Below, piece after piece: positions 4,700-51,192 of a DNA stretch of 64,000 nt. The stretch covers positions 704,001 to 768,000 of the forward strand of contig CAXWPL010000005.1 in NCBI GenBank assembly GCA_963666215.2, read 5' to 3'. Numbering within the stretch: the first letter of the stretch is position 1; the number at the start of each line of letters is the position of its first letter. The translations under genes were made by a program, and so were the position numbers. The stretch comes from Acidobacteriota bacterium (GTDB lineage Bacteria; Acidobacteriota; UBA890; WLXD01). The notes under the pieces are model-generated. The model saw only the letters and a list, made by a program, of their open reading frames with translations. It had not been told where the DNA came from and did no database searches.

Positions 4700-5943
4700 C
4701 GTTGGTCCTCTGTGGGGTCTACGCTCGACGCCTGCCTCAGTGGCGCGGCGGCGATCGCCTGGCGCGCCGCCTCGTGATCCCAGTCGGCGGTGTAGAGCTG
4801 CCCCAGACGGGCACTCGGATCGTGGCGCGTCGACGTCCAGATGAGACGCGTACCATCGGGCGACGGCACCGGGAGATGATCGAACCCCTCGGTGCAGGTC
4901 ACCCGAACAGGCTCCTTCGTGCCGTCGATGTCGACAAGGTAGAGTTCGAAGTTCTCGAAACCGAGCTTGTTGGAACCGAAGATCACGTACTCCAAAGAGG
5001 GGTGCACGTACGGCGCCCAACTCATGGAGCCGAAGTCGGTCAAGCGGCGCTCGTCGCTGCCGTCGAGCTTCATGGAAAAAACGTCGGCGGTCAGCCCCGA
5101 CTCATCGAAGCGGCGCCAGATGATGCGCGAGCTGTCGGGAAAGAAGAACGGACCGCCGTCGTAGCCCAACGATGTGGTGAGCTGCCGCTGCTCGGAACCG
5201 TCGGCACGCATGATGTAGATGTCGGCGAAGTAAGCCGGGTCGGTCTCCAGCATGCGTTGCTCGTGCTCGCTCAGGTCGCGGTTGTAGGCGTTACGCAACG
5301 ACGTGAACGCAATCCACCTGCCGTCGGAGGAAAAGCTCGCCTCGGCGTCATAGCCGACGGCGTCGGTAAGGCGTCGCAGCTCGCCGGTGGCGCGCTCCGA
5401 CACGAAGATGTCCATCGCCGTCTCGTAGCTCCAGGAGTAACGCGGCTGATTGCCCGCCTCACGCATCTCGTACTCGGCACGCTGCTTATCGAGGATGTCG
5501 GGGTCGAGGTGCGTTGAGCCGAAGAGAATGTCCAGCGTCTTGGGGTGGAAGAATGAGCACGTAGTATTGCCGACGCCGGGCGAAACGCGGCGTGTGTCGC
5601 CGGTCGTCAGATCGAGCTCGTAGATCTGGTAGAAGGGGTTCCCCGGCTCACGCTCGCTCTGAAAAGTGAGCCTCGACCCATCGGCGGAGAAGTAGCCTTC
5701 CCCGGCTCGCCTGCCCTCGTAGGTCAGGCGGCGAGCCCGTTTCAGAAACCGGGTCTCATTGTCATCTCCCTGCGCCGGCGTCGGCGTAACGGACGTCGAC
5801 GAGCCCGCCGAAAAGCCGAGGGCTCCACCTTCGCGATGAGCCGCCGCGTGGGAAACCGCGCCCACCAGCACCATCAGAGTCACAATGGAGCCGACAAGGC
5901 CGACAGCAACAGGCAGGATTCGACGACGGCCGGGAAGGGACAC
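4696..5943 (-). CDS. TolB-like/PD40 beta-propeller protein, secreted
   Basis: AGEGYFSADG, GYDAEASFSSDG, GYDGGPFFFPD, SWAPY repeats; GTG start 5943 after AGAGG. Confidence 0.85.
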   Translation of the reverse strand: MSLPGRRRILPVAVGLVGSIVTLMVLVGAVSHAAAHREGGALGFSAGSSTSVTPTPAQGDDNETRFLKRARRLTYEGRRAGEGYFSADGSRLTFQSEREPGNPFYQIYELDLTTGDTRRVSPGVGNTTCSFFHPKTLDILFGSTHLDPDILDKQRAEYEMREAGNQPRYSWSYETAMDIFVSERATGELRRLTDAVGYDAEASFSSDGRWIAFTSLRNAYNRDLSEHEQRMLETDPAYFADIYIMRADGSEQRQLTTSLGYDGGPFFFPDSSRIIWRRFDESGLTADVFSMKLDGSDERRLTDFGSMSWAPYVHPSLEYVIFGSNKLGFENFELYLVDIDGTKEPVRVTCTEGFDHLPVPSPDGTRLIWTSTRHDPSARLGQLYTADWDHEAARQAIAAAPLRQASSVDPTEDQR

Positions 5944-15491: not shown

Positions 15492-15935
15492 ATGATCTAT
15501 ACCGACTCGGCCAAGTACGCCCTTCGCGCGGTGACGCACATCGCGGGGCACGACGATCCGCAGGCGCCAGTCTCCGCCACTGAGATCGCCGAGGCTGAGG
15601 GAATTCCTCCCTACTACATGGCCAAGGTGCTGCAGGATCTGGCTCGCGCGAAAGTGCTGAAGTCAGTACGAGGGCGAGGCGGCGGCTTTCGACTAGCACA
15701 GCCGGCGAACAAGACTCATGTGCTCGACGTGATCGCGGCGGTGGAGGACATCGGCCGCATCACCAAGGAGTGCGTCCTCGGGCTCGACGAGTGCAACGAC
15801 ACCGTCTCGTGCCCGATGCACGACACCTGGAAGCGTTTTCGTGAGTCGCTGCTCAAACGACTCGGCCGCATGACGGTGGCCGATCTGGCGAAGGAAATGA
15901 AGCGCAAGCGGCGAGGCCTGGCGGCGGCACTCTAA
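15492..15935 (+). CDS. Rrf2 family transcriptional regulator (Fe-S type)
   Basis: YALRA, IAE...IP..Y.AKVLQ.L, S.RG.GGGF.L, three Cys in CVLGLDECNDTVSCPMH. Confidence 0.93.
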   Translation: MIYTDSAKYALRAVTHIAGHDDPQAPVSATEIAEAEGIPPYYMAKVLQDLARAKVLKSVRGRGGGFRLAQPANKTHVLDVIAAVEDIGRITKECVLGLDECNDTVSCPMHDTWKRFRESLLKRLGRMTVADLAKEMKRKRRGLAAAL

Positions 15936-16697
15936 AGCGCGCGCTGGGACCAGGCGTGCCGCCACACACGGACTCCGTTGATCGCGCTTGCCGTCGTGGC
16001 GAGCAGCAGCAGCGCCGACGCCAACGAGACCGTCCACAGCGCCTCGAGGACCCGCCCCCCCCCCCCCCCCCCCCCGGCCAGTAGTGGTACACCGAGCGTC
16101 CAGGCAGCGAACGTCATCGCTTGCAGCCGCCGGTCTGCCATGTCGTATTGCGACAGTGGCGGAGCCTCGAACCCCGAGCCTACGTATCCCTGAATCCAGG
16201 CCACCGTCGGCAGTAGCCGCATCTGGACGCCGATGACCAGCTGACCGAGAAAGCCCAGCAGCCCGAGGACGCCGTAGACCGTCATCACACGCAGCTGGAG
16301 CTCGGAGAGCGGCACAATGACGAGGTAGATCGCGAGCACAAGACAGGCAATCAGATAGGCCACCGACTGCAGCGCGTGCAGCACGCCGAAATCTGGGCGC
16401 CGCAAGCCGCGCGGTGCTGGACGGGAGTTGTCGCGCAAGCGAAGCGTTGTTGTTGCGAGCCCGGCCAGCGTAAAGAGCACGACCGCGGTGCCGATGGGGG
16501 CGGCAGGAGGCCAGGCGACGAAGCCGACGAAAAGCAACAAGACTCCGATCTCGAGCGCCCACGCCGTGCGCGTACCGGTGCTCTCGTCGGGCATGGCGAG
16601 GATCCGTGGTTGAAGCGCCAGAACCGCGAACGCGATCGCAAGCGCGATGTGGGCAGCCGCGAAGTAGGCCGCCGGAACACCCCGCGGCGGCGGCGCT
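15932..16697 (-). pseudogene. Polytopic membrane protein remnant (family seen near Rrf2/nitrosative-stress genes), no clear start, probable internal deletion
   Basis: P.AYF.AAH.AL, YGVLGLLGFLGQLVIGV..RLLP hydrophobic segments; abrupt join at PRILA|MPDES; 21-nt poly-G tract in frame. Confidence 0.55.
16055..16075. repeat. C21 homopolymer (G21 on the coding strand)
   Basis: Direct count of 21 consecutive C. Confidence 0.9.
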
Positions 16698-17821
16698 TTA
16701 CTCGGTGCGGCCGTAGCGTCGCTCCATCTCTTCTCGAATGCGCCGCATCTGCCCCTCCGCCCCGGCCTCGAACCAGGCGTGCTCGGGCCGGGCGAGGATC
16801 TCGTCGATGACGCGGTCAACCTCGAAACCGGCCGAGCCCTGAGCGGCAATCTCCCGGGCCTGCGGGATGAGCTCCATATAGAACCTCTCGGCCACCTCGA
16901 ACATGCCGTGCCAATGGGTGTAGTCCGGCGCCTATCATGGAGGCTCCATGGCGAGCGCGCCGGCCCTCGTGGTACCAGAGGAAAAACCATGTCCACTCGA
17001 TTTCCTCGCGCCATGATTGCCTCCCCGGGCTTGGCGAACTTCTCGTTGTAGAGGATAACGAGGTCGTCGTACTGGCTGTAGAAGGCGTTGACGTAGTCCG
17101 GCGTGTGGCACGTCGAACAGACCTCCTTCATGCGGGTGCGCTTGTCCTGCCAGGTATCAACGATGCGATCGCGGCGCTCCTGATCGTCGAGCGAGGTGAC
17201 GATGACGTGATCGGCATCCGTATCCATCAATCGGCTGACAGGAGGCCGGTTCGTCCACGAGATGCGCTCGTCCGGATCGTGCGTAATGCGACCTCTGTTA
17301 CACAGATTGCCGGACATGTGGCAGCTGGCGCACGTCGGCGCCGCGGAATAGTCGCGTCCGAGCACCCACTCAGTGGCGTCGAGGTTCATCTCATCCCTGA
17401 GATCGCGATAGGCCACGCCGTGCTTGGACTCCTCGTAGATTTCCTTTTGCGGGTGGTCCGGCCCGAGGTGACACTTTCCGCAGTTCTCGGGCTGGCGGGC
17501 GCGACGCGGCGAGAAATCGTGGCGACTGTGGCAGGCCGTGCACGAACCACGCGATCCGTCGAGATTGAGGCGCCCAATTCCTGTGTTCGGCCACGTTCCC
17601 GAGTCGTACAGCGGGCGCCCATCTTCGTCTCTCGAGATGCGCTCGACGACCGCGAGATCTGTGGGTAATCCGTCGTCACCTGGAGGCAGATCCGCGACGG
17701 TGATGCTGGCGCCACCGTCGGCGGCCAGTAGCGCCACCGTCGAGCCGTGACACTGCTGGCACCCAGAGAACGCGCTGGCGAAGCCGCTGACGATCTCGAC
17801 GTCCATGCCGGGTGTGGGCGA
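16698..17821 (-). pseudogene. Hydroxylamine oxidoreductase (HAO)-family multiheme cytochrome c, 5'-truncated and frameshifted
   Basis: CQQCH, CTACH(SRHDFS), CGKCH(LGPDHPQKEIYEESKHG), APTCASCH, CSTCH; after frameshifts near 17008 and 16933 reads EEIEWTWFFLWYHEGRRARHGASMMAPDYTHWHGMFEVAERFY. Confidence 0.9.
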
Positions 17822-17890
17822 GAAAGCGAGCAGAATTCCGGTAACAATCTGGACGACGAACAGATAGGCTGGCGTGCCGCCCAGCGCGAG
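17822..17890 (-). pseudogene. Cytochrome b (b6-like) fragment, helix A only
   Basis: LALGGTPAYLFVVQIVTGILLAF matches the LG......F..Q..TG..LA cytochrome b signature. Confidence 0.7.
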
Positions 17891-18129
17891 TCGTTCCCTT
17901 GTGGGGCCTCCGCGGTGCCGAGAATGTGGCCCACCCAACCCTCGAGCCCGTCGAAGTAGCCAGCGGCTTCGTCGGAGCTGGCCAGCAGCGCCTCGACATG
18001 CTGGCGCAGCTCCGCATCATCCCCGCAGCGATCGTCGAGGAAGGCGCCGCGTTCCTCCGCCGGCAGTGCCAGCACCTCGAGCAGCAACGCCTGGACTTGT
18101 CGGGCGCGTGGATGTTCCTGTAGCGACAT
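17891..18129 (-). pseudogene. N-terminal fragment of an ECF-associated Ser/Thr protein kinase
   Basis: RQVQALLLEVLALPAEERGAFLDDRCGDDAELRQHVEALLAS is the typical pre-kinase helical segment; no kinase domain follows. Confidence 0.7.
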
Positions 18130-23500: not shown

Positions 23501-23872
23501 TCAAAGCTGCAGCCGTTGTGCCAAGCCATAGAAGGTTGTGGGTTTCAGACCCAAGAGCGCGGCCGCTCTTGCCCGGTTACCACCGGTTTGCGCAAGAGCC
23601 GCGCGAACCAATCCACGCCGTACATCGTCGAGAGTTTCAGCGAGCGGTGCGCCGGGGCGCACCACGAACAGTTGCACATCGCCCAGGGCCACCGCCGCGC
23701 GCACCGTCAGGTGGACGGTCGCGTCGGCGCGAAGGTCGTGCGAACACTCGGGGCAGCGGACGCCGGCGATGGCCGGCAGGAGCAGATCGCCGCGGACCTG
23801 CTCCTCGATGTCAGCGCTGCCACCGCCCGTATCCGCGTCGAGGGCGCCATCCTCTGGGGGGATGCCAGGCAC
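23501..23872 (-). CDS. Small Fis-type HTH protein with a CxxC motif
   Basis: AAGGAGG RBS; CPEC; LVRAALAQTGGNRARAAALLGLKPTTFY HTH_8 signature; no AAA+ domain. Confidence 0.75.
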   Translation of the reverse strand: MPGIPPEDGALDADTGGGSADIEEQVRGDLLLPAIAGVRCPECSHDLRADATVHLTVRAAVALGDVQLFVVRPGAPLAETLDDVRRGLVRAALAQTGGNRARAAALLGLKPTTFYGLAQRLQL

Positions 23873-23875
23873 GCG

Positions 23876-25021
23876 CTACTCCTCCTTCGTCACCCTCGCC
23901 GCCTGCTCGGGCCGCGCGAGTGAGATCACGAACGGGTTCTGCCGCTGCCGCTCCCGGAACACCTCGCGGCTATCGAGCCCGACCCAGCCCTCTTCGATCA
24001 GCACCTGTGCGACCGCCACGCCGAGTGAGTCGCCCGGGCCGAGCAACACCAACCGGTCTGGAGCATACTCGCGGATGGCGGTTCGTACGACGGCAGTAAA
24101 GTCGAACGGCTCGGTGACCTGCGTCGACAGCGTGTAGTCGTAGAGTTCGTCCGGGTCGGCGATCCGCGGCCTCCACTGCACGCCACGACCGTCAATGAGA
24201 GGCACCTCGGGCGAGCGCCAGGGCAACTCGCTCAGCTCCTTCAGCCCGAGAGAAGCCGCCGGGTGCATGATCGGCGAGTGGAACGCCGCGTTGCCGGCAA
24301 GTCGCAACGGATAGTCGTTCGATCCGAGCGTTACCGTGGGCAACGAGCCGATCAACGCCGCCCGCCCCTCGGCGCTCGACCAGAGCACGCGGAAGCCGCC
24401 GAAGCGAATCGAGTCGCCTCGCGAAAGACCGGGGGAAGCGCCAGGCTCCGCTCGCCGACCGAGAGCAGCCTCCACCGCGGCCGTGCGCTCAGGGTCGTCG
24501 CGCCAATCCTCTCCAACGGTCGGATAAACAACCTGCGCTCCGCCACAATCCTCTGTGGCCTCCGCCATCGTGGCCACCAACCGCATCGTGGCGCCGGCGT
24601 CGAGGACTCCGGCGCAGCAGAGGGCGGTGTACCAGCCCATGCTGTTGCCACCAATGGCGACAACATCAACGCGTTCGCGATCGAGCCCCAGATAGTCCTG
24701 CGCCGTGCACGCAAAAATCACCGGAGCGATATTCGGACCGCGCAGGAAGCGGCTGCGGAAGTTCCAGGCGCCATCGAGCTCACGCACGCCTAGCCAGCGA
24801 CTGCCGTCGTGCGAGCGTTGGCTGTCGAAAGAACTCACAGCGTCCGACAGCTCCCGCAGAGCTCCGGTGCCTGGTTCGTCGAGCGCCGCCAGCGAGCCCA
24901 GGTCGTTGGCTCCATAGCTTCCCCTCCCGGGGCACAGCACCACCACGCGCTCGCGCGTCGATCCATTCGGGCGTTCGACGCCGGGCCGCCGTCCATCCGG
25001 AGCTTCCTCGGTGCGACTCAT
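23876..25021 (-). CDS. FabD-fold acyltransferase (atypical ACP S-malonyltransferase-like)
   Basis: CPGRGSY, GNSMG nucleophile motif, AAFHSP, YTL..QV.EPFDF, LGPG; ATGA overlap with upstream E1. Confidence 0.85.
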   Translation of the reverse strand: MSRTEEAPDGRRPGVERPNGSTRERVVVLCPGRGSYGANDLGSLAALDEPGTGALRELSDAVSSFDSQRSHDGSRWLGVRELDGAWNFRSRFLRGPNIAPVIFACTAQDYLGLDRERVDVVAIGGNSMGWYTALCCAGVLDAGATMRLVATMAEATEDCGGAQVVYPTVGEDWRDDPERTAAVEAALGRRAEPGASPGLSRGDSIRFGGFRVLWSSAEGRAALIGSLPTVTLGSNDYPLRLAGNAAFHSPIMHPAASLGLKELSELPWRSPEVPLIDGRGVQWRPRIADPDELYDYTLSTQVTEPFDFTAVVRTAIREYAPDRLVLLGPGDSLGVAVAQVLIEEGWVGLDSREVFRERQRQNPFVISLARPEQAARVTKEE

Positions 25022-27420
25022 GCGCGCGCCGGCGCCGCGGCGTACCGGTGGCGGACGAGCTGCAGGGCGCGCTCGACGATTCGGTCCTCCGACGGCAGCA
25101 GCTGCTCCCACGACGGACCGAGTGTCACGAAGCTGTCTTCAGCACAGACGCGCGCCAGGTTAGGCGCGCCACGACCCTCGCCCGGATCGTCCGGGTCGTC
25201 GTGCGGACTCAGTCCCTCGACGATCGCGGTAACGACCGCCTCGCTGAGCCCGCCGGTTCGACGTCCCTCATCCACAACCAAAACGGATCCGGCGCGTCGC
25301 GACTGCGTTATCAAGGTCTCGAGGTCGAGCGGTTGCAACCAGCGCAAATCCACGACGCGCACGCGCAGGTCGTTGTCCCGCTCGAGGCGACGCGCGGCGC
25401 GCAACGATCGCCACAGGCCGTTGCCCCAGCTGACAATCAGCAGGTCACACGTGCTCGTCGGCGGCGACCTGTCGTGGCGTTCCGATCCGTCGAGTCCAAC
25501 GCCACCCGGCTCGTACACCCGCGCCTTCGAGAACGGCGCGGCTGCAGTACGCCCTCCGGGCGCGGGGAACTTGGTCATCCATAGACCGTCTCCGCTGTCG
25601 TACAGGTCGCGGACGAGGTACAGCGCGATCGGCTCCAGAAATAACACCACCCGGCCGTCGACTCGAGCGAGCGCCATGCAGGTGCGCAGCATCCCAACCG
25701 CATCGTCGCCGCGGCTCGGGCAGGCGACGATGACGCCCGGGATGTCGCGCAGCGCGGCGATCGCGTTGTCGTTGTGGAAATGGCCGCCGAAGCCTCGCTG
25801 GTACCCCCAGGAGGCGATCCGCACGACCATGGGGTTGCGAAACTGGCCCTTCGAGAAGAACTGCAGCGTCGCGGCCTCGCCGCGGATCTGGTCGATTGCG
25901 TTGTGCAGGTAGGCGAGATACTGGATCTCGGGAACCGGCAGCATGCCCAGCTGGCCGGCGCCCAGCGCCATACCGAGAATGCTTTGCTCGTCGAGCAGAG
26001 TGTCGAACACACGTTGATCACCCGCCGCGGCTTGCAGCTCGTCGGTGATGCCGTACACGCCGCCGCGACGACCGACGTCCTCCCCGAAGGCCAACATCTC
26101 TGGATACTTGGCCAGAAGATCGCGAAGGCCCCAGTTGATCAGCCTGCCCAGACGCTCAGGGCCGCGCTGCTCCGGCAGTGATCTGCCCACCGCGGCACGA
26201 CTCTCGCCTGGCGAGTGGTCGACGAAGAACATGGCTTCGCGCTCGTCTCGATAGTCTCCGCGGCTGGACTCCGCGGCAACCGCATCAACGCTGAGCGGTG
26301 CGAGTGGCTCGACAATCTCCGACACACTGCGCAGATGAGGCCGCGACGCGGCTTCGCGCTCGGCCGCCTCCACGCGCTGACCGATTTCCTCGTAGCAACG
26401 CAGCAAAAAGGCGGCCGACGCGACCCCCGAGTCGATCGCGATCTCGCACGAGCGCCGCAGCGGATCGCGTGCCTCCGTCGCCTTGATCTCCTCCGACGTT
26501 CGGTAGGAAAGCTCGATGTCGTTGCCAGCGTGACCAAGAAGCCTCTCGAGGTCGAGTCGAAGCAACGCCGGCACCCGCTGCGAACGGCAGACGTTGGCCG
26601 CCTGCAGGGTGACCTCGAACGTCTCGACCAGATCGAGGCCATCGGCCTCGAAATAGCTCAGTCCAGGCCGGCTTCCCCACGCCTCTCGGACCCACCCCTC
26701 CGGCGTTTGTACCGAGATTCCGATGCCGTTGTCTTCACAGACGAACAGAATCGGCATCGGCCAACCCCGACGCAACGCCCACAGTGCAGCGTTGATCGCG
26801 CCGACGCTGGTTGAATGATTGATCGACGCGTCGCCCAGCGAACAGACGACGATAGCGTCCGACGGCACCGGCATCGGCAACCCGAGAACGCCACCACGGT
26901 CGATCGCGAATGCCATGCCCATCGCCTTGGGCAGATGCGACGCAATCGTGCTCGTCTGCGGCAGGATCCACATCGCACGACTACCGAACACCTTGTGCCG
27001 GCCGCCGGAAATCGGATCGTCGGCTGCGGCGCACAGCGACAGCAGAACATCGAAGATCGGTGTTTGACCTTCCAGCTGACGCGCGCGGGCCGCGAAGAAG
27101 CCGCCCGAACGGTAGTGCAAGAACGCTGGATCATCGGGCCGCAGCGCCGCCGCAACCGCGGCATTGCCCTCATGACCGGCGCTGCCGATCGTGTAGAAAC
27201 CCGTGCCGGCGCGCTTGAGCCGGCGGGCCGCCAAGTCGAGATGTCGCGCTTGAAACTGACACTCGATCAGCTCGAGGAGCGCGCGTCCGCTCAATCGCGA
27301 GCCCGGCCGAACAGCCTCGGCAAGATCTGCCTCTGACACTACAGGGTCACCTGACTCCACGCGAGCCGCCAGCTCGTCCCGCAAGTTACGGTCGATGGTC
27401 GGAGTCTGTGAGCTGCTCAT
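25018..27420 (-). CDS. Fused 2-oxoacid dehydrogenase E1 alpha+beta (TPP-dependent)
   Basis: FYTIGSAGHE, LHYRS, GDASIN...CEDN, FGEDVG..GGVY, RVFDTLLDEQ, EIQYLAY, GGHFHN, VVDLRWL.PLD. Confidence 0.93.
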   Translation of the reverse strand: MSSSQTPTIDRNLRDELAARVESGDPVVSEADLAEAVRPGSRLSGRALLELIECQFQARHLDLAARRLKRAGTGFYTIGSAGHEGNAAVAAALRPDDPAFLHYRSGGFFAARARQLEGQTPIFDVLLSLCAAADDPISGGRHKVFGSRAMWILPQTSTIASHLPKAMGMAFAIDRGGVLGLPMPVPSDAIVVCSLGDASINHSTSVGAINAALWALRRGWPMPILFVCEDNGIGISVQTPEGWVREAWGSRPGLSYFEADGLDLVETFEVTLQAANVCRSQRVPALLRLDLERLLGHAGNDIELSYRTSEEIKATEARDPLRRSCEIAIDSGVASAAFLLRCYEEIGQRVEAAEREAASRPHLRSVSEIVEPLAPLSVDAVAAESSRGDYRDEREAMFFVDHSPGESRAAVGRSLPEQRGPERLGRLINWGLRDLLAKYPEMLAFGEDVGRRGGVYGITDELQAAAGDQRVFDTLLDEQSILGMALGAGQLGMLPVPEIQYLAYLHNAIDQIRGEAATLQFFSKGQFRNPMVVRIASWGYQRGFGGHFHNDNAIAALRDIPGVIVACPSRGDDAVGMLRTCMALARVDGRVVLFLEPIALYLVRDLYDSGDGLWMTKFPAPGGRTAAAPFSKARVYEPGGVGLDGSERHDRSPPTSTCDLLIVSWGNGLWRSLRAARRLERDNDLRVRVVDLRWLQPLDLETLITQSRRAGSVLVVDEGRRTGGLSEAVVTAIVEGLSPHDDPDDPGEGRGAPNLARVCAEDSFVTLGPSWEQLLPSEDRIVERALQLVRHRYAAAPARA

Positions 27421-27445: not shown

Positions 27446-30400
27446 TTATGCGCCCGCGAGAGCCTCGTCCGGCGAGCCCTCACCGCGACGTCTCAGGAAG
27501 GCCTCGCGTAGGTCCATTGCCAGCGAGAAAACCGCGGGCACGAGAAACAGCGTGAAGATTGTCGACACCGCCAGCCCACCAACGACAACGCTTCCGAGTC
27601 CGCGATAGATCTCCGATCCGGCACCGGTCACAAGCACCAGCGGTGCCATCCCCATCACGGAGGTCATCGTGCTCATGAAGATCGGCCGGACACGGTCCGA
27701 GACCGCTTCGCGGAGAGCCTCGCGGTGCGGCAGATCGCGGTCGCGCATGTAATTCAGCGTTTGGTGAACGATGAGGATGGCGTTGTTGACCACGATGCCG
27801 ATCAGAATCACGAACCCGAGCATCGCGATGACGTCGAGCGACTGCGGCGCGACGAACGCGTTCACCAGCGCCAGCCCCATGAGTCCGCCGACAGCCGCGA
27901 AAGGCACCGAGAACAGAATCACGAACGGGTACAGAAACGACTCGAACAAAGCCGCCATCAGGAGGTAGGTCACCAACAGCGCCAGGACAAAATTCGACTG
28001 CAGCGCTTGACGCGCCGTGACCAGCTTATCGGCGGTACCCGCGAGCCGCGCCTCGTAGGGCAACGATAGCGAGCCGTCTGCCCTCATCGGCGCCACGATG
28101 TTGTCGCGGATATGCGTCATGGCGGTCTCGAGCGGCATGTCAGCTGCCGGGACCACGCGGATTTTCACGGCGCGCTGACGCTCGATGTGGTTGATCTGCA
28201 CCGGCCCCGAAGCCGCGACCACCCGCCCGACATCGCCGATACTCACCACGCGGCCCGTAGGAGTCGCGATGTTGAGCGCCTGAATATCCTGGCTGCGTGC
28301 CGCATACGAGGCCACCCCGCGCAGCATGAGATCGATGGCGCGCCCCTCATGCTGGTACTCGCTGACCTTCACTCCATCAACGAGGGCGTTCAGCGCGAAG
28401 CCGATGTCGGCGGCGGTCATGCCGAGCTCAGCGGCGCGCTCACGATCGGGGACGACCCGAATCTCCGGGTTGCCCAGATCGAGCCCGGGTATCGGCTGTG
28501 CCTGTGCGCCGGGCATCGTCGCCCGAACGGCACCGAACACACGGGCTCCGAGTTGCAGCAGACGAGCCAAGTCCGGACCCGTCAGATCGACGTCAATCGC
28601 GCGGCCTGGATCGGCGCCACGTTGAAAGATCGACGGCTGCTGAACCACCGCGAAGGTGCCGGGGATACCGGCGACAGCCCTCTGGATCACCGGCACGAGC
28701 TCGCCGGTCCGGTCGGCGAACTCCGGATACCCAATGGCCCCTATGAACGCGCCTCCGGCGAAGGAAACGAAGAAGAAGTACTCGATGGGCGGCGCGTCGA
28801 GCCTCGCGGCGGCAGCGCTACCGGGGGCGGCCTCCCAATACGGACTCAGCTGCGCCTCCGCAAGCTCGCCGATGGCGACGTACTCATCAACGTTGTAGCC
28901 AGGCGGCGGCAACATTATGCCGAACGCGAAGTTCTGATTCCCGGTCGGCAGGTACTCCGTCTGCGGGATCAGCAACCACGAGATCAGCAACGCACCTACC
29001 GTGAACGCCACCACAACGCCGAGCCGCAGCGAGGCTGAGCCGGTGAGCCAGTAGATCGAGTCGGCGATCCAACCATTGATGCCGGCGCCCCACGCCGCGA
29101 TCCCGCGCGAGCTCCCGCCGTCAGCGGAGTGGACCTTGCTGGTGCGAAGCACACGCGCGGCCAAGCTCGGAATCAACGTAATTGAGACGATCAACGAGAT
29201 CAGCACTGCCGCGCTTACGGCCACTGCGATGTCGCGAAACAGCTGGCCGGCCTCCTCCTGGACAAACAACACAGGCAAGAAAACCGCCACGGTCGTGAGC
29301 ACCGATGCCAGCACGGCCCCCCAGACCTCGACCGAGCCGTCGTAGGCGGCCTGGCGGCGCGGCTTGCCGCGCTGCAGGTGCCGGTAGATGTTCTCGAGAA
29401 CAACGATCGACGCGTCGACGATCATGCCGACGGCGAAGGCGAGTCCGGCGAGACTCACGACGTTGATATTGCGACCCAGCGCGGTCATCGCCAGGAACGT
29501 CCCTACGATGCTCACCGGAATCCCCAGGCCGATGACGAACGTGCTCGAGATGCTTCGCAAGAAAATCAGCAGCACGACCACGGCGAGCCCGCCACCAATC
29601 AGGATGTTGCGTTGAACGAGTCCGATCGCACGTTCGATGTAGTCGGCTTCGGAAAAATTGATCGTGGCTCGCATCCCCCGCTCGCTCAGCACGCCGGCAT
29701 TCAGCCCCGCCAGCGCATCTTCGAGCCCCGCCGTCACCTCCAGTGTGTTTGAGCCGGTTCGACGCAGAACGTTCATCGCCAATGCGGGCCGCCCGCGCTG
29801 ACGAACGATCGACTCGGCGTCGGCGTAGCCCAAGCTGACGGTCGCCACGTCGCCGACGTACACCGGCGCGCCGGCGCGCCAGGCAAGCACCACCTGCTCG
29901 ACATGTTCGGGTGTGGTGTACTCGCCCACGGTTCGAACAACGTAGCGCCGCTTGCCCTCGTCGAAGTCGCCCGCGCTGATGTCGCGATTCTCGGCGTCGA
30001 GCGCAACTGCCATGCGCTGCAGCGACAGCCCGCGAACGGCCAGCTTCTGCGGGTCGACGGTGACGTGCAGCTCACGTTCGCGGCCGCCGTGAACATTGGC
30101 CACGGCGACGCCAGGTACGCGTTCAATCGTGGCTTTGACGACCTCCTCGGCGAACTGTCTCTCGAGCTCGATATCGAGATCGACTCCCTCGAGGGTCTCG
30201 ATCGTGAGCCAGGCGATCGACTGCTCCTCGAAAGGGTCCTTACTGGTGATCACGGGCTTGAGCGCGGTGTCGGGATACGACTGCACCTGCTCGAGCTTGT
30301 TGTTGACTCGCAGCAGCAGCCCGTCCTGGTCGGTCCCGGTTTGGAAGCGCAGCTTGACTACACCCTGCGAGCGACGGCTCTCGCTGGTGATCTCGATGAG

Positions 30401-30628
30401 GCCCTCGAGCGACTTGAGCTGGTCCTCCTGCTCCTGGACGATCTCGGTTTCGATCTCCTCGGGCGAAGCACCCGGCCAGATCGTGGTGACGATGGCCTGC
30501 GGCACGTCCACATCTGGAATCAGCTGTACCGGGATACGAAACAGCGAAAGCAGGCCGAACAGACTCACCAGCAAAACGCCAACGGTGACGGTCACCGGGA
30601 AGCGAATCGAAGACTCGACGAGCTTCAT
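27446..30628 (-). CDS. RND efflux transporter permease (AcrB/AcrD/AcrF family)
   Basis: 1060 aa; WPGASPEEIE, GMIVDASIVVLENI, ALFESF..PF, GIVVNNAIL, RVRPIFMST. Confidence 0.95.
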   Translation of the reverse strand: MKLVESSIRFPVTVTVGVLLVSLFGLLSLFRIPVQLIPDVDVPQAIVTTIWPGASPEEIETEIVQEQEDQLKSLEGLIEITSESRRSQGVVKLRFQTGTDQDGLLLRVNNKLEQVQSYPDTALKPVITSKDPFEEQSIAWLTIETLEGVDLDIELERQFAEEVVKATIERVPGVAVANVHGGRERELHVTVDPQKLAVRGLSLQRMAVALDAENRDISAGDFDEGKRRYVVRTVGEYTTPEHVEQVVLAWRAGAPVYVGDVATVSLGYADAESIVRQRGRPALAMNVLRRTGSNTLEVTAGLEDALAGLNAGVLSERGMRATINFSEADYIERAIGLVQRNILIGGGLAVVVLLIFLRSISSTFVIGLGIPVSIVGTFLAMTALGRNINVVSLAGLAFAVGMIVDASIVVLENIYRHLQRGKPRRQAAYDGSVEVWGAVLASVLTTVAVFLPVLFVQEEAGQLFRDIAVAVSAAVLISLIVSITLIPSLAARVLRTSKVHSADGGSSRGIAAWGAGINGWIADSIYWLTGSASLRLGVVVAFTVGALLISWLLIPQTEYLPTGNQNFAFGIMLPPPGYNVDEYVAIGELAEAQLSPYWEAAPGSAAAARLDAPPIEYFFFVSFAGGAFIGAIGYPEFADRTGELVPVIQRAVAGIPGTFAVVQQPSIFQRGADPGRAIDVDLTGPDLARLLQLGARVFGAVRATMPGAQAQPIPGLDLGNPEIRVVPDRERAAELGMTAADIGFALNALVDGVKVSEYQHEGRAIDLMLRGVASYAARSQDIQALNIATPTGRVVSIGDVGRVVAASGPVQINHIERQRAVKIRVVPAADMPLETAMTHIRDNIVAPMRADGSLSLPYEARLAGTADKLVTARQALQSNFVLALLVTYLLMAALFESFLYPFVILFSVPFAAVGGLMGLALVNAFVAPQSLDVIAMLGFVILIGIVVNNAILIVHQTLNYMRDRDLPHREALREAVSDRVRPIFMSTMTSVMGMAPLVLVTGAGSEIYRGLGSVVVGGLAVSTIFTLFLVPAVFSLAMDLREAFLRRRGEGSPDEALAGA

Positions 30629-31947
30629 GGATTGTCTTCCTCTGGATTGGCCGGAGCGCTCGGTTCTTGCTGCCTGGCGGCCGTCTGCGGGTCGGCGGCG
30701 ATGGGCCGATCGGGATCGGCTTCTGGCACCTCGAGCTCCAGAACCTGCGCGATCCGCACCGGCTGACCGGGGAATATGCGCTCGTTGCCACGCACGACCA
30801 TCAGGTCGCCGGGCGCCAGGGCGCCATAGACGATCTGCCAGTGGCCGCGCGCCGGCCCGGTTTCCACCGCCAGCTCTTCAACAGCTCCGGCGCTACCGAC
30901 ACCCTCAGCCCCGCGCACCCGGTAAATGAAAACGGTGTCTCCGCGCCGCACCAGCGCGTCCTTGCTCACCAACATTGCCGGCTGGGCACTCCCCAGCTGT
31001 GCCATCACTCGCGCGGCCATGCCCCCCTTGACGCGCTCCCCGGGATTGAGCACGCGGACGAGCACCGGGAACGTCCTTGCCTCAGGGATCGCCTGCGGCA
31101 CGACGGCCCTGACGATCCCCTCGTAGAGCTCACCGGGCAGCGCATCGAACCGCACGTCGACGGGGAAACCCGCTTCGACGGCGCTGATAAAACGCTCGGC
31201 GATCTGCACCGAGACCTCGACCTCCGACAGGTCCACTAACGACACGATGGAGTCGCCGGTGCCGACCCACTCCCCCAGCTCGACGTGTACGGCTGTAACA
31301 CGCCCGCCGAACGGCGCACGCACGGTCGCTCGAGACAGAAGATCTTGCAGGCGCGAGGCGTCGGCGTCGTAGCGAGCGAGGCTCTGCTCCAGTGCATCGC
31401 GGTCGGCGACCGCTTCATCGTACTCGCGCTGCGAGATCGCCCGGCGCTCCAGAAGATTCGCCAGGCGGTCGAAGTCGGAGGAAGCGCGGCTCAGCCGCGC
31501 CACCGCCTCTTGCTTGGACGCCACGGCGGCGGCGACCTCCATCTGCATCGTCGTCGAGCGCAACCTGACAAGGACCTGTCCGGCTCGCACGCGGTCGCCC
31601 TCGTCTACTAGGAGCTCGGCGGCGAGACCATCCACTTCGCTGGCGACCAGGGAGTTGCGACGAGCCGCAACCGTACCCAGCAGCTGCACGGGCTCGGCAG
31701 CGATGGTCTCTACTGCGGCTACCACGTCCACTGGCGCTGGCGGCGGGCCGGCTGGCATGCCGCCGTCGGCTGCCGCCGCGGGAGCCGCTCCGCTGCCGGC
31801 CGCCACAGGCTGCGGCGCAGTCCCACCCATCACCCGCGGCCACAAGAAGGCAACGGCTGCGGCAGCCAGGACGCCAATGAGGAAGCCGCCCAGCCACGAC
31901 CCACCCGAGCGTCGAGCTGTCGATGAGCCGGTCTTGTTGGTGTCCAC
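30625..31947 (-). CDS. RND efflux periplasmic adaptor (membrane fusion protein)
   Basis: TM anchor; VASEVDG....LLVDEGDRV..GQ.L, VRAPF.G, GE.V..G, RTF.V; start approximate (GTG 31947). Confidence 0.9.
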   Translation of the reverse strand: MDTNKTGSSTARRSGGSWLGGFLIGVLAAAAVAFLWPRVMGGTAPQPVAAGSGAAPAAAADGGMPAGPPPAPVDVVAAVETIAAEPVQLLGTVAARRNSLVASEVDGLAAELLVDEGDRVRAGQVLVRLRSTTMQMEVAAAVASKQEAVARLSRASSDFDRLANLLERRAISQREYDEAVADRDALEQSLARYDADASRLQDLLSRATVRAPFGGRVTAVHVELGEWVGTGDSIVSLVDLSEVEVSVQIAERFISAVEAGFPVDVRFDALPGELYEGIVRAVVPQAIPEARTFPVLVRVLNPGERVKGGMAARVMAQLGSAQPAMLVSKDALVRRGDTVFIYRVRGAEGVGSAGAVEELAVETGPARGHWQIVYGALAPGDLMVVRGNERIFPGQPVRIAQVLELEVPEADPDRPIAADPQTAARQQEPSAPANPEEDNP

Positions 31948-32146
31948 AGGAGTACCTATCGAAAGGGGCAGGGGAAAGGCGAAGCGAGGAGCGCCGAGAG
32001 CCAGCGACTCGCCCAGCCTATGGGGCTGTCGCGGTGTGGGCAAGATGCCCAAAGTGCAAAGGCGGCCGACTCTCCCCCGGTCGCCGCAGCGACGCCTAGT
32101 GAGGTTCGACCAGCGGGCGGGGACGTGGTTGACCGAGCGGCACGCT

Positions 32147-32226
32147 CTCAACCACTTCTCCGGCCCGATTGATCCACAGCTCGTGGCTCAACCACTTCTC
32201 CGGCCCGATTGATCCACAGCTCGTGG
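32147..32226. repeat. Perfect 2 x 40-bp tandem duplication
   Basis: CTCAACCACTTCTCCGGCCCGATTGATCCACAGCTCGTGG at 32147-32186 and 32187-32226. Confidence 0.95.
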
Positions 32227-34172
32227 TCGATCCGTGAGGCCAACTCGGTGCCCTCGACCACGGTCTGCTCGCCATCCGGCCACAGAATTCTCAGCTTCTC
32301 GACCCGTGCCGGCGGTTCGGTGAGCGCGTCGGAGCCGCCGAGACCGAACGTGAGCGTGCTCTCGTGCTGCGACAAGTAAGAAGACCCAGAACGCACGCGG
32401 CCACGCTGCACACCCCGCGACGTCTCCAGAGTCACAACAGCCCCGATTGCCGGGCTCCAGACGCCATCCTGACGCGCAGCGGGCGCCTGGGACGGGCCCG
32501 GGGCGATCACCGGCAGCACTCGCAGCACGCTCGGTACAGCCGAGGACGGGTCGGAGGCCGAAGGACCGGCAGCGGGATCGATGTCACGGGGCGAATTCGT
32601 CGCCGTCCATGGTGGGCGTGCGTCGCGCGTGGTGTTGCGCCACAGGTAGGCTGGCCCATCGTTGGTTGTCACAACAACATCGAGATCGCCGTCGCGATCG
32701 AAGTCACCGTAGGCCGCACCGCGCCCCACGATGGGGCGAGCGAACGGCCCGCCGAGGCGTGTTCCCACCTCCTCCAGGCGCGGTGTGGAGCTTGCCGGCT
32801 CAGCGCCGAGGTTGCGGAACAGGAGCGGCAGCTGCGGATAGGTAATGCTGGCCTCGACCTCGTTGATACGGTGTTCGATGTGGCCGTTGACGGCCAGGAT
32901 GTCGAGCCATCCATCGAGGTCGTAGTCGAAGAAAAACAGACCGAAGGTCAGCGCGGAGAAGCTGCTGCGGCCCACGCCGGAGCGCGCTGCCACGTCCACG
33001 AACAGACCCCCGGGACGACGCTGAAAGAGGCCGATCATCTCCTTGCTGAAGTTGCCCACCACCAGCGCCGGTTCGCCCTCGCGCGCCAGGTCGCCGCTGT
33101 CGATACCCATGCCGGCGCGTGCCCTGCCGTTGGCATCGAACGCCACTCCGGAGAGCAAGCCCACCTCCAAGAAGGTGCCGTCACGCTGGTTTTCGAAGAG
33201 AAAATTGGGCTCCGTATCGTTCGCCACAGCCAAATCGGGCCAGCCATCGCCGTCGAAGTCGTCCACCGCGATGCCAAGCGACTTGCCACCCTCAGCGAAC
33301 AGACCCGCCTCCCGGGTAACGTCGGCAAATACCGTGCCGTCGTTGCGGTACAGCGCCGACGGCTCGCCCACATACGACTCAGGCGTGCAGTACGACTTAT
33401 TGCTGCCGTCGAGCGTGCACCAGATGTCCTCATCGGGGCTCCAGACCACGTAGTTCGCGACGTACAGGTCGAGGTCGCCGTCACGGTCGTAATCGAACCA
33501 CGCCGCCGAGGTCCCCCACCCCGGATGGTCGACGCCCATCGCCTCGGTGACGTCTTCGAATCGCACCACCCCGCCGTCGCCGACGTTGCGGAACAGTCGG
33601 TTGGCGCCGTAGGCCGTGACGTAGAGATCAACGCGACCGTCCCTGTCGAAGTCCGCAGGCGCCGCCCCGAACCCGTACAGAGAAACATCGAGCCCCGAGC
33701 CGGCGGTTATATTGACGAAGCCGCCCGCTTGGTCGTTGCGATACAGCTGCATCGTCGCTGCAAGCTGCTCGCTGTCGACGGCCTCCTCGTGACCAGGCCA
33801 AGCACCACTCTGGACGAACAAGAGGTCGAGCCATCGATCGCCATCAGCGTCGAACACCGCAACACCCGATCCGAGCGACTCCGGCATCCACTTGTCGCCG
33901 AAAGCACCGCTGACGTGCTCGAAGGCGATGCCGGCCTCTGCGGTCGCGTCGATGAACCCACTTCCGCCATCCGCCACCGCGTTGACCGGAGGCTGGGCTT
34001 GGCCCGCCGGCTGCCCGTTCTGAGCCCCGGCCGCACTGCACAGCACGGCGAGCGCGAGCACCGTCGCTACCCGGCTGAGCGCGCCGGTCTCGATGCTCAT
34101 CCGCACCGGCGAAATCTCAACCATTCGCTGCTCGCATTCGTTGCACGCAATAGCTGCACGGATCAACTGCAC
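32148..34172 (-). CDS. CRTAC1-family protein (FG-GAP repeats plus ASPIC/UnbV domain)
   Basis: Multiple DxDxDGxxDL repeats, GRGAAYGDFDRDGDLD, GSSYLSQ....LTFGLG, I.WPDG; start uncertain. Confidence 0.9.
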   Translation of the reverse strand: MQLIRAAIACNECEQRMVEISPVRMSIETGALSRVATVLALAVLCSAAGAQNGQPAGQAQPPVNAVADGGSGFIDATAEAGIAFEHVSGAFGDKWMPESLGSGVAVFDADGDRWLDLLFVQSGAWPGHEEAVDSEQLAATMQLYRNDQAGGFVNITAGSGLDVSLYGFGAAPADFDRDGRVDLYVTAYGANRLFRNVGDGGVVRFEDVTEAMGVDHPGWGTSAAWFDYDRDGDLDLYVANYVVWSPDEDIWCTLDGSNKSYCTPESYVGEPSALYRNDGTVFADVTREAGLFAEGGKSLGIAVDDFDGDGWPDLAVANDTEPNFLFENQRDGTFLEVGLLSGVAFDANGRARAGMGIDSGDLAREGEPALVVGNFSKEMIGLFQRRPGGLFVDVAARSGVGRSSFSALTFGLFFFDYDLDGWLDILAVNGHIEHRINEVEASITYPQLPLLFRNLGAEPASSTPRLEEVGTRLGGPFARPIVGRGAAYGDFDRDGDLDVVVTTNDGPAYLWRNTTRDARPPWTATNSPRDIDPAAGPSASDPSSAVPSVLRVLPVIAPGPSQAPAARQDGVWSPAIGAVVTLETSRGVQRGRVRSGSSYLSQHESTLTFGLGGSDALTEPPARVEKLRILWPDGEQTVVEGTELASRIDHELWINRAGEVVEPRAVDQSGRRSG

Positions 34173-45379: not shown

Positions 45380-46771
45380 TCAGCTGCTCCGCGACGAGCG
45401 CGAGAAATCGATGCGATTGCCCGACGGGAAATGAATGGTCAACCGATCACCGTCGAGCTCAACGCGCGCGACCTCCGGGGTCGTGGCGGCCTCATCGGGA
45501 GTCGTCACGCTCTTGCGCAACAACGCCAACGGCAGCCCTGGAAGCGGCTCTCCCTGCGAGAAGTGATGTTCGTGGTGAAAGCTCAGCTGGTTGCCATCGA
45601 GCTCGTAGGTTCCCCCCTCCCCCGATGCGCGTGCCGCGTTGCCGTCCGCATCGAGAACAAAGAACAGCACCTGCCAGTCGCGATCGGTAAAGAAGATACG
45701 ACCGACAAGGGGATGCTCGGTGCCGTCGGCGAGCACATAACGCTCGGCTCTCCAGGAGCCGGCGAGCGGAACAGCGACCGACTGCAATTGCGCCGGCGAT
45801 AGCGATGGCGATGGCAATTTTTCGGCCGCTTCGCGAATGAAGTCACCGAGGGTGTCGAAGACCACCGCAGGCTCCTCGATGAAGGGAAAGTGGCCCGAGC
45901 GTTCGAGAACCACGACCCGCGCGTCGGGTATCGCGTCGCCGAGCGCCCGAACCATCTCGAGTGGAATCGAATCGTGAGCGCCGTGCAGCAGCAACGTGGG
46001 CGCATCGACCTCGCCCAGCCGATCCCACAGGTCGAGTCCGCCGCCCTCGGTGATCTTGGCGAACACCGCAGCGCCATACGCCCCCATGTTGGCGAACGTC
46101 GAGGGCTGAAAGTCGAGATTCAATTTCGCCATCGCGCGACGATCGAAGAACGTGCTGCGGAAGCTAGCGGCCAGCAGCGCGGCGGTCGCGCTCAGGTCGC
46201 CCGGCTGCAACCGAACCGCGTCCAGAAGCTGGTTGCGCTCGGCCTCGTCCTGCGTGGTTCGCGCGGCGCGCGCACGCTCGGCCGTGAGCTGAGCGAATCG
46301 CTGCCCGGGCTCGGAGGGCGAGATCAACGTCAGCGACGCCAAGCGCCCCGGGTGCTCCAGAGCATAGAGAACCGCGACGATGGCGCCGAACGAGTGCCCC
46401 ATCAGGTGCATGCGCTCGGCCCCCTGCGCAGCTCGCAGCGCATCGATGTCGGCGACCTGGTTCGTCAGGTTCAACGCGTCGGCGGAAACATCGCCCGCCG
46501 AGCTGCCAACGGCCCGTGGGTCGAACAGCAACAACCGGTGGCTCGACGCCAGCCGCATGAAGTGCGGCAGCAGGTACGTGTGTTCCAAGCCCGGGCCACC
46601 CGGCACTACGACTACAAGCTCACCCTCGCCGACCACGGCGACGTGCAGCGCCAGCCCGTTGGCCAAGACGTCGGTGTAATCGAGGGGGGCGTGCGCTTCC
46701 TGCGCCCAGATCGATCCGGCGCACCCCATCGCAATCAGCAGGGCTGCTCGCGTCGGGCCCCGCCAGCTCAC
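45380..46771 (-). CDS. Secreted alpha/beta hydrolase (proline iminopeptidase-like, S33) with C-terminal lipocalin-like domain
   Basis: GGPG, FDPRAVG.S, GHSFG, HGAHD, SGHFPFIEEP; tail LAGSW...GTYELDGN.L. Confidence 0.8.
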   Translation of the reverse strand: MSWRGPTRAALLIAMGCAGSIWAQEAHAPLDYTDVLANGLALHVAVVGEGELVVVVPGGPGLEHTYLLPHFMRLASSHRLLLFDPRAVGSSAGDVSADALNLTNQVADIDALRAAQGAERMHLMGHSFGAIVAVLYALEHPGRLASLTLISPSEPGQRFAQLTAERARAARTTQDEAERNQLLDAVRLQPGDLSATAALLAASFRSTFFDRRAMAKLNLDFQPSTFANMGAYGAAVFAKITEGGGLDLWDRLGEVDAPTLLLHGAHDSIPLEMVRALGDAIPDARVVVLERSGHFPFIEEPAVVFDTLGDFIREAAEKLPSPSLSPAQLQSVAVPLAGSWRAERYVLADGTEHPLVGRIFFTDRDWQVLFFVLDADGNAARASGEGGTYELDGNQLSFHHEHHFSQGEPLPGLPLALLRKSVTTPDEAATTPEVARVELDGDRLTIHFPSGNRIDFSRSSRSS

Positions 46772-46991
46772 CGTCTCGTCACGTGAAGGCCTATGCGAAG
46801 GCCATCGCCGCAGCGTGAACGCGCCTTGGCCAGCGGGTTGAAACAGCCGCGGCCGGCGAAACCGCCGGCCGCGCACGAACTCCGGCCGAAGCGCACCATA
46901 ATCAAGTCGCGGGCACACTGCAAAACTCGGCAGAACCGCCGGGCGGTCCCGAGGCGTGTTCCCAGGCTCTTCGGCGACTCGCCGGCCCGGA

Positions 46992-49229: not shown

Positions 49230-49243
49230 CTCGATGTCTCCTG

Positions 49244-50749: not shown

Positions 50750-50783
50750 GCCGGGTCGATCTCCACGATGACCGCGAGAGCGC

Positions 50784-51191
50784 TCACTGCAAACCACCGC
50801 TGCCGAAGATCGGCCGGCCGATCGCAACGACCCCGAGCCCAACGCACGTCAGCGTCAGGAGCACCCCTACGAGAAGAAAGGCGTGACTCTGCCGTTCCTT
50901 GGGCCGTTTCCGGTTGACGATCACGAAAGCGTGCGCCACAACGGCCGCCAGCAGCATCATGACGATGTGGCCCGCCAATGCCCCGTAGAAAGGCACTGCC
51001 GTCAGCAGCAGCATGCCGAGCAGGACCTGCAGGTCGAGCAGCCCGGTGAATGCGCCCATGATTATGCGCGAGGTGTCGTCGAGAGGCCGACGTTTCGCGG
51101 CACCGACAACCAGAAAAACCATCGCGACCACGGCGGATAGCAGCACGAGATAGCGAACGCCCGAGTGGGCGTAGAAGAGCGGCGCCAGCAT
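50784..51191 (-). CDS. Four-helix membrane protein, hypothetical
   Basis: AHSG.RYLVL, DLQVLLG, H..MM..A...AH hydrophobic pattern. Confidence 0.65.
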   Translation of the reverse strand: MLAPLFYAHSGVRYLVLLSAVVAMVFLVVGAAKRRPLDDTSRIIMGAFTGLLDLQVLLGMLLLTAVPFYGALAGHIVMMLLAAVVAHAFVIVNRKRPKERQSHAFLLVGVLLTLTCVGLGVVAIGRPIFGSGGLQ

Positions 51192-51192
51192 C

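Follow-up and report, generated by a model that had tools for sequence, protein, structure and literature searches.

The E1ab-AT locus

We analysed a 64,000-nucleotide stretch of an Acidobacteriota genome (C5:704001-768000 of the host genome G000, which is 91.7% complete; hereafter the window), in which three consecutive genes on the minus strand encode the fused alpha and beta parts of the E1 component of a 2-oxoacid dehydrogenase (E1ab), a divergent acyltransferase with the fold of FabD (AT), and a small protein with a Fis-type helix-turn-helix (HTH). An annotation made from the letters alone (the sequence-only reading) had singled out these genes as a candidate 2-oxoacid dehydrogenase without an E2, in which the FabD-fold enzyme would move an acyl group from a lipoyl carrier to coenzyme A (CoA) or acyl carrier protein (ACP). 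The three genes are the following:

25018..27420, minus strand: fused E1 alpha-beta (E1ab), thiamine pyrophosphate (TPP)-dependent 2-oxoacid dehydrogenase E1, 800 amino acids plus stop, assigned from Pfam domains
23876..25021, minus strand: divergent FabD-fold acyltransferase (AT), 381 amino acids plus stop, assigned from predicted structure and alignment
23501..23872, minus strand: small Fis-type HTH protein, 123 amino acids, assigned from an HTH_8 match

E1ab starts with the ATG at 27420, in agreement with the family alignment, and stops with the TGA at 25020-25018. The ATG of AT (25021-25019) overlaps this stop as ATGA, so that AT is predicted to be translationally coupled to E1ab, and AT ends with the TAG at 23878-23876. 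After a gap of 3 nt (CGC) the Fis-type gene follows, with a GTG start at 23872 and an AGGAGG upstream; its product matches HTH_8 at its C-terminus (Pfam, residues 82-115, 3.4e-8, 33.5 bits against a cut-off of 22). Both the overlap and the 3-nt spacing had been described in the sequence-only reading, and direct reading of the minus strand confirmed them.

The same reading had reported that E2, E3, lipoyl domains, ACP and ketosynthase are missing from the window, and family searches of the whole genome agreed: inside the window they found no E2, true lipoyl domain, GcvH, ACP or ketosynthase, and no E3 match above the family cut-off. The sole Biotin_lipoyl match in the window, which is sub-threshold, is the barrel-sandwich of a HlyD-type efflux protein at ~31.5 kb. 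The pair is not accompanied by the cognate lipoyl E2, and usually E3, that stand with E1 in a classical E1-E2-E3 operon.

E1ab keeps the residues of a lipoyl-dependent E1

E1ab carries the Pfam domains E1_dh (7e-23, 81.5 bits against a cut-off of 22), Transket_pyr (1.2e-17, 64.6 against 27) and Transketolase_C (5.9e-16, 59 against 25.9), and its nearest solved relatives are the E1 subunits of pyruvate dehydrogenase (PDH) and branched-chain 2-oxoacid dehydrogenase (BCKDH). The TPP/Mg motif GDA...EDNG (G196-D197 ... E229-D230-N231) is invariant in 28/28 family members, as are two histidines (28/28 each): His549, in GGHFHND, which aligns to the beta catalytic His128 of 1w85_B, and His297, in LLGHAGND, which aligns to the alpha-loop His of YHGHSMSD in human PDHA1. 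In E1 enzymes this beta-subunit His and this alpha-loop His serve the reductive acylation of lipoyl. Since the TPP motif and both lipoyl-acylation histidines are kept, E1ab looks like a working lipoyl-dependent E1 and not a mere decarboxylase. In public databases its relatives are often named 'MFS transporter' by NCBI, an evident annotation error, and '2-oxoisovalerate dehydrogenase E1 component' by JGI.

AT has the predicted fold of FabD and an altered active site

No Pfam family matched AT, even at E<=10, and against the NCBIfam fabD model (TIGR00128) it scored 29.2 bits, with a cut-off of 260.9; phmmer matched it to FabD structures at ~1e-8. An AlphaFold model built from 39 relatives (predicted local distance difference test, pLDDT, 93.3; predicted template modelling score, pTM, 0.91) matched the structures of FabD and of polyketide synthase (PKS) acyltransferases with a Foldseek E-value of 1.8e-18 and template modelling (TM) scores of 0.79-0.83 (target-normalised), at 14-22% identity. 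The predicted fold of AT is that of FabD, though the sequence is very divergent.

To compare the active sites, E. coli FabD was added to a family alignment of 39 members. The FabD residues Ser92, His201 and Gln250 are kept as Ser127, His248 and Gln301 in 39/39 members. The position of Arg117 is occupied by Met152 in the window AT, and by 36 Met, 2 Leu and 1 Val across the 39 members, which bears out the proposal of the sequence-only reading that the catalytic Ser (GNSMG) and His (AFHS) are retained and the malonate-binding Arg is lost. Three further FabD residues are exchanged in 39/39 members, Gln11 for Arg (Arg33), His91 for Asn (Asn126) and Gln14 for Tyr, and the FabD motifs GHSxG and PGQGSQ are likewise replaced in 39/39 by GNSMG and PGRGSY. 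In the window AT the motifs read GNSMG (Ser127), AAFHS (His248) and RLVATMA.

The family as a whole has the signature CPGRGSY / GNSMGWY / TMG / AAFHSP / IDGRG, together with a conserved C-terminal extension of ~45 residues. Among the 8000 candidates examined it comprises 2100 clusters (90% identity) at E<=0.001, and clustering at 50% gave 88 representatives with E<=1e-30; by sequence similarity the AT family is large and discrete. Its members carry the public name 'ACP S-malonyltransferase', and in the ESM Atlas automatic 'S-malonyltransferase' names only.

E1ab and AT form a conserved two-gene unit

The sequence-only reading had suggested that this pair occurs in other bacteria, and it does. 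We assembled 4 loci from named genomes and 80 from metagenomes (84 together, including the near-duplicates L022/L023, L040/L045 and L090/L091), to which 11 genomes of the window's phylum were added, giving 95. E1ab lies directly upstream of AT in 90 of these 95 loci, and occasionally the two are fused; three loci are not assessable and two are exceptions. By source the counts are 79/84 for the genome and metagenome loci and 11/11 for the genomes of the phylum, and in all four named-genome loci (Pleionea, a Parvularculaceae metagenome-assembled genome (MAG), a Pseudomonadota MAG and a 'Deltaproteobacteria' MAG) E1ab is immediately 5' of AT. Three of the five misses among the 84 have fewer than 175 bases upstream. 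As for the remaining two, L029 and L056, the AT of one adjoins beta-helix proteins and that of the other a transhydrogenase.

In L001 and L002 the open reading frames (ORFs) of E1ab and AT overlap by 4 nt, as in the window; at L090/L091 AT is next to the beta part alone, the alpha part being inverted. A search for longer proteins returned one full E1ab-AT fusion of 1082 amino acids (P0389, with E1_dh, Transket_pyr and AT) and one partial fusion, a Transketolase_C-AT fragment (P0260); such fusions could also be produced by an error of one base where the two frames overlap in ATGA. E1ab and AT are one two-gene unit.

The Fis-type gene does not belong to this unit. The sequence-only reading had included it in the system; among 96 loci it stands beside the pair in the window only, with no homologue next to the pair in the 84 + 11 other loci and none in four genomes of the same family that share the synteny, and we rejected it as a component.

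Glutaryl-CoA dehydrogenase is the commonest neighbour of the pair

To characterise the neighbourhood, all ORFs of 85 loci (the 84 and the window) were clustered, and the 129 immediate neighbours of the pair entered a Pfam census (per locus, the first ORF on each side; two duplicate loci were left out). Glutaryl-CoA dehydrogenase (GCDH) stands beside the pair more often than any other gene: it is present in 32 of the 66 loci that offer 1.3 kb or more of flanking sequence on one side, and adjacent in 27 of the 52 that do so on both sides. Its position varies: it directly precedes the pair on the same strand in 24 of the 32 loci, is divergent in 2, and is found downstream at up to 70 nt in 5 (in one of these the ORF call overlaps the end of AT) and at ~1.2 kb in 1. 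Since it is found in several gene orders, the linkage survives rearrangement. All 32 GCDHs are 47-100% identical to one protein that matches solved GCDHs at 1e-186.

The other recurrent neighbours were fewer. In the census the acyl-CoA dehydrogenase family (ACAD), under which GCDH falls, was matched by 28 of the 129 neighbours, ArgR by 10, aldehyde dehydrogenase by 9, class I/II aminotransferase by 8 and class V aminotransferase by 4, and among the ORF clusters there were LysR regulators in 15 and 7 loci, ArgR in 11 and class I/II aminotransferase in 5. An aldehyde dehydrogenase of the GabD or succinate-semialdehyde dehydrogenase (SSADH) type (TIGR01780, 713 bits against a cut-off of 646) occurs in 13 loci and is an immediate neighbour in 9, mostly on the same strand directly downstream of AT. 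L035 combines both on a single strand: GCDH comes immediately before E1ab, and the aldehyde dehydrogenase immediately after AT.

Homologues of E2, E3, GcvH, small biotin/lipoyl proteins and ACP were sought at E<=1e-4 in the 84 loci and in the window's 23-kb stretch, and none turned up. PP-binding, ketosynthase, nonribosomal peptide synthetase (NRPS) and PKS are absent among the families matched by at least two of the 129 neighbours, and the genes next to the pair include no recurrent CoA-transferase or ligase. Of the associations that the sequence-only reading had put forward, an acyl-CoA dehydrogenase (GCDH, 32/66) and the absence of E2 were found, but GcvH did not appear in any of the 84 loci.

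A quick tree of 85 AT sequences (SH-aLRT, Shimodaira-Hasegawa-like approximate likelihood ratio test, support; midpoint root; no rows removed), which shows the distribution of neighbour types only, placed all 32 GCDH-linked loci in one half of 67 rows and the window in the other half, of 18 rows. The window AT is 35-45% identical to the GCDH-linked members and shares all signature residues with them.

Peptidases are also frequent near the pair, namely tricorn protease (L001, L002), M14 (L022) and M28, S9, M32 and M19 (window). The tricorn-protease homologues, of ~1100 amino acids, are located as follows:

L001:1475-4696, same strand as the pair, upstream of E1ab-AT: tricorn-protease homologue
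L002:1959-5366, same strand as the pair, upstream of E1ab-AT: tricorn-protease homologue

L001 is a gammaproteobacterial isolate, Pleionea sp. CnH1-48, and L002 an alphaproteobacterial MAG, and in L001 a methyltransferase gene lies between the tricorn homologue and the pair. We also considered the wider neighbours as a shared theme and discarded them as lineage-specific synteny; they were response regulator with kinase, MipA, polyprenyl synthase and ThyX, and, likewise, a MetH fragment, cation efflux, OmpA, M14 peptidase and MoxR/DUF58.

The host genome and its relatives

The description of the system as lacking E2 holds for the locus and not for the genome, which encodes two ordinary split E1-E2 sets (one with E3) and GcvH, all outside the window. 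Besides AT the genome encodes a canonical FabD, complete in its FabD residues, at C2:520560-521471, with an ACP ~1 kb downstream. The window AT is the only AT homologue in this genome, and E1o (SucA) was not detectable in it. Two further genes of interest lie on contig C4:

G000 contig C4:834470-836407: second orphan fused E1ab, 782-amino-acid frame, 27% identical to the window E1ab, no AT
G000 contig C4:138037-138297: stand-alone biotin/lipoyl-domain frame, 87 amino acids, Biotin_lipoyl 49.5 bits, not near the pair

The two E2 genes lie away from this second E1ab.

Within the window's phylum the AT family is patchy, being present in 18 of 301 sampled genomes (a tally that includes three genomes flagged as unpublished, G024, G049 and G152). 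GCDH (E<=1e-90) was found in 17 of the 18 AT-positive genomes, the sole miss being 69% complete, against 195 of the 301 overall. In the window's order, E1o (SucA, TIGR00239) occurs in 2 of 26 genomes, only one of them above the family cut-off, and irrespective of AT; 10 of the 24 order genomes with no E1o match are at least 90% complete. The order seems to be without a classical 2-oxoglutarate dehydrogenase (OGDH) and, since E1o is found in only 2/26 genomes, there is probably no E2o in it to lend to a 2-oxoadipate E1. That the pair serves as an OGDH substitute in a host without SucA was rejected, because the order genomes without AT lack E1o too.

Surroundings of the pair in the window

Directly upstream of E1ab are genes for a protein with FG-GAP and ASPIC (UnbV) domains, a membrane-fusion protein (MFP) and a resistance-nodulation-division (RND) pump, and downstream of the three-gene set come a second FG-GAP protein and a cobalamin adenosyltransferase. 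The stop of the RND pump lies 25 nt ahead of the E1ab start, and the order ASPIC-MFP-RND-E1ab-AT is common to four genomes of the same family. Other features of the window are included below:

27446-34172, minus strand: FG-GAP/ASPIC (UnbV) protein, HlyD-type membrane-fusion protein and AcrB-type RND pump
2747-5020 and 45383-52755, minus strand: peptidases, comprising M28 with PDZ, S33-type hydrolase, S9 prolyl oligopeptidase, M32 carboxypeptidase and M19 dipeptidase
15935-17938, minus strand: multi-haem cytochrome, 668 amino acids, Multi-haem_cyto and MtrC/MtrF-like domains

Since the window is rich in peptidases, a lifestyle based on the degradation of peptides and amino acids is suggested.

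A possible route from 2-oxoadipate to glutaryl-CoA

Because the commonest neighbour of the pair is GCDH, CoA is indicated as the acyl acceptor and 2-oxoadipate as the substrate. The sequence-only reading had left the acceptor as CoA or ACP; the GCDH linkage favours the former, and ACP found no support. Our preferred reading, which we hold tentatively and put a little short of an even chance, is that the pair is a unit converting 2-oxoadipate to glutaryl-CoA in the breakdown of lysine, hydroxylysine and tryptophan, with AT replacing the catalytic domain of E2.

The scheme that we infer for this conversion starts from the fact that E1 forms an acyl thioester only with an oxidant, which in this enzyme family is the lipoyl disulfide. 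E1ab with TPP would decarboxylate 2-oxoadipate and reductively glutarylate a lipoyl-lysine arm that is not encoded by the pair and would be borrowed, with GcvH and the lipoyl domains of the resident E2s as the candidate lenders. Ser127 of AT, activated by His248, would then accept glutaryl from S-glutaryl-dihydrolipoyl, holding it as an acyl-serine ester before handing it on to CoA, that is, the ping-pong chemistry of FabD would run in the carrier-to-CoA direction. A resident E3 would reoxidise the lipoyl arm, and the glutaryl-CoA would go to GCDH. The altered active site of AT can be read in the same terms: loss of Arg117 would remove the clamp for the alpha-carboxylate of malonyl and fits a substrate with no carboxylate beside the thioester, and the invariant Arg33 at the Gln11 position may be what holds the distal carboxylate of glutaryl.

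Several observations weigh against this assignment. No locus of the window's 18-row half of the AT tree has GCDH beside the pair, and the recurrent neighbour in that half is a class V aminotransferase (L019, L020, L022, L023 and three sister-family genomes); since its own clade is without GCDH linkage, the substrate of the window copy is carried over by homology, with the GCDH-like gene elsewhere in its genome as the other ground. In the window genome the GCDH-like gene lies ~590 kb from the pair, and the two ordinary E2s of the host could do the whole job. L029 and L056, which are sister rows in the AT tree, truly have no E1ab beside AT. The genome-level association with GCDH, though in line with the hypothesis, carries little weight, since 65% of all sampled genomes have the gene and related genomes do not count as independent. 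Finally, the GabD-type neighbour (9 loci) is also compatible with decarboxylation by a non-oxidative route, or with succinyl in place of glutaryl chemistry.

Alternative explanations

That the host E2s could do the whole job leads to an alternative that we consider unlikely, though it deserves attention, namely that E1ab is an orphan E1 working on a shared E2. E1ab would dock on a resident E2 core much as human DHTKD1 does on E2o; this E2 would provide the lipoyl arm and carry out the transfer to CoA as well, and AT would be an accessory, for instance clearing wrongly acylated lipoyl arms or shuttling acyl groups between CoA and another thiol. The host has what this would take, with two complete E1-E2 sets, E3 and GcvH, and E1ab is of the alpha-beta type, in which the beta C-terminal domain binds the peripheral-subunit-binding domain of E2 in known complexes. 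Orphan E1s moreover do occur in this genome, since the second fused E1ab is present without AT. However, an accessory role leaves the near-obligate coupling of AT to E1ab unexplained (90/95 loci, the ATGA overlap and the fusions), and E1o, presumably accompanied by an E2 suited to dicarboxylic substrates, is found in only 2/26 genomes of the order. The non-oxidative route, which seems to us improbable, would have E1ab decarboxylate 2-oxoadipate or 2-oxoglutarate to glutarate or succinate semialdehyde, which a GabD-type enzyme would oxidise, with AT in an unrelated or unknown role as a hydrolase or transferase. The GabD/SSADH-type aldehyde dehydrogenases that immediately adjoin the pair in 9 loci speak for it, but GCDH, which needs glutaryl-CoA and not glutarate, is far commoner (32 loci against 13), there is no recurrent CoA-transferase or ligase among the neighbours, both E1 histidines for lipoyl acylation are invariant, and an AT that is always coupled would be left with no function.

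The remaining two explanations start from the fold of AT. FabD-fold enzymes normally serve ACPs, and the sequence-only reading had pointed to pathways in which E1-like enzymes feed carrier proteins; an E1-like enzyme could make an acyl unit that AT loads onto an ACP for a lipid or natural product, a precedent being the quinocarcin system QncN/QncL/QncM. We judge such a building-block supply very improbable, given that there is no ACP in the 84 loci or the window stretch, no ACP or ketosynthase in the window and no PP-binding, ketosynthase, NRPS or PKS among the families matched by at least two of the 129 neighbours, and that catabolic genes (GCDH, LysR, ArgR, aminotransferases) are what recurs beside the pair, in a peptidase-rich setting. 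Scarcely credible, in our view, is the function that public annotation assigns, an ordinary malonyl-CoA:ACP transacylase. It has in its favour the name 'ACP S-malonyltransferase' given to relatives and the FabD fold, but Arg117 is replaced in 39/39 members and Gln11 and His91 are replaced too, the scores fall far under the fabD and Pfam cut-offs, and a canonical FabD with a nearby ACP is encoded elsewhere in the genome, on contig C2.

Comparison with known systems

Human DHTKD1 is described as the 2-oxoadipate dehydrogenase E1a that, together with E2o and E3, turns 2-oxoadipate into glutaryl-CoA ahead of GCDH, and it shares E2o (DLST) (10.1101/2020.01.20.912931). The pair would resemble DHTKD1 in being an E1 without its own E2, proposed to act in the step from 2-oxoadipate to glutaryl-CoA ahead of GCDH. 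The architectures differ, since DHTKD1 is a homodimeric E1 of the E1o type working on an E2o with the chloramphenicol acetyltransferase (CAT) fold, whereas the window E1 is a fused alpha-beta protein coupled to a FabD-fold AT.

With FabD (malonyl-CoA:ACP transacylase, MCAT) and the acyltransferases of trans-AT PKSs, AT has in common the fold, the Ser-His dyad, Gln250 and the stand-alone format of ~350 amino acids. In contrast to these enzymes, it has no Arg117, Gln11 or His91, adds the conserved C-terminal extension of ~45 residues, and in the loci examined is not beside an ACP or ketosynthase, adjoining an E1 instead.

Two other systems offer partial parallels. AcoC, of the acetoin dehydrogenase system, consists of a lipoyl domain and an acetyltransferase with the alpha/beta-hydrolase fold, so there too a serine-hydrolase-type fold does acyl transfer in place of a CAT-fold E2 core; unlike AT, which has no lipoyl domain, AcoC has its own, and its fold is another one. 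The corynebacterial and mycobacterial OdhA/Kgd proteins are an E1o fused to a succinyltransferase domain that borrow the lipoyl domains of the PDH E2. The likeness lies in an E1 that is paired with an acyltransferase of its own and takes its lipoyl arm from another complex, as we propose for the window pair; in OdhA/Kgd, however, the transferase is CAT-fold, E2-like and fused, whereas AT has the FabD fold and in most cases its own gene, translationally coupled to that of E1ab.

Significance

The pair is widespread in bacteria yet uncharacterised: in a literature search covering few subscription journals, no account of an E1 associated with a FabD-like partner came to light. The 2-oxoacid dehydrogenase complexes are built around a CAT-fold E2 core. 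It is possible, although here we are somewhat more hesitant than over the substrate, that the pair represents a third 2-oxoacid dehydrogenase architecture, in which a stand-alone FabD-fold 'trans-AT' takes the place of that core and unloads glutaryl from a borrowed lipoyl arm to CoA.

If this proves true, the acyl-transfer step of 2-oxoacid dehydrogenases would have been reinvented with the chemistry of fatty-acid synthase, with lipoyl arms served in trans. A large AT/E1ab family, in which more than 2100 clusters at 90% identity match AT and whose genes now go under the names 'ACP S-malonyltransferase', '2-oxoisovalerate dehydrogenase E1' or 'MFS transporter', would gain a function, and a compact two-gene route to glutaryl-CoA would become available for engineering. 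For the organisms themselves, the pair would fill the step from 2-oxoadipate to glutaryl-CoA in the lysine and tryptophan catabolism of marine and soil bacteria, and would supply this missing step to many bacteria, including lineages without E1o/E2o.

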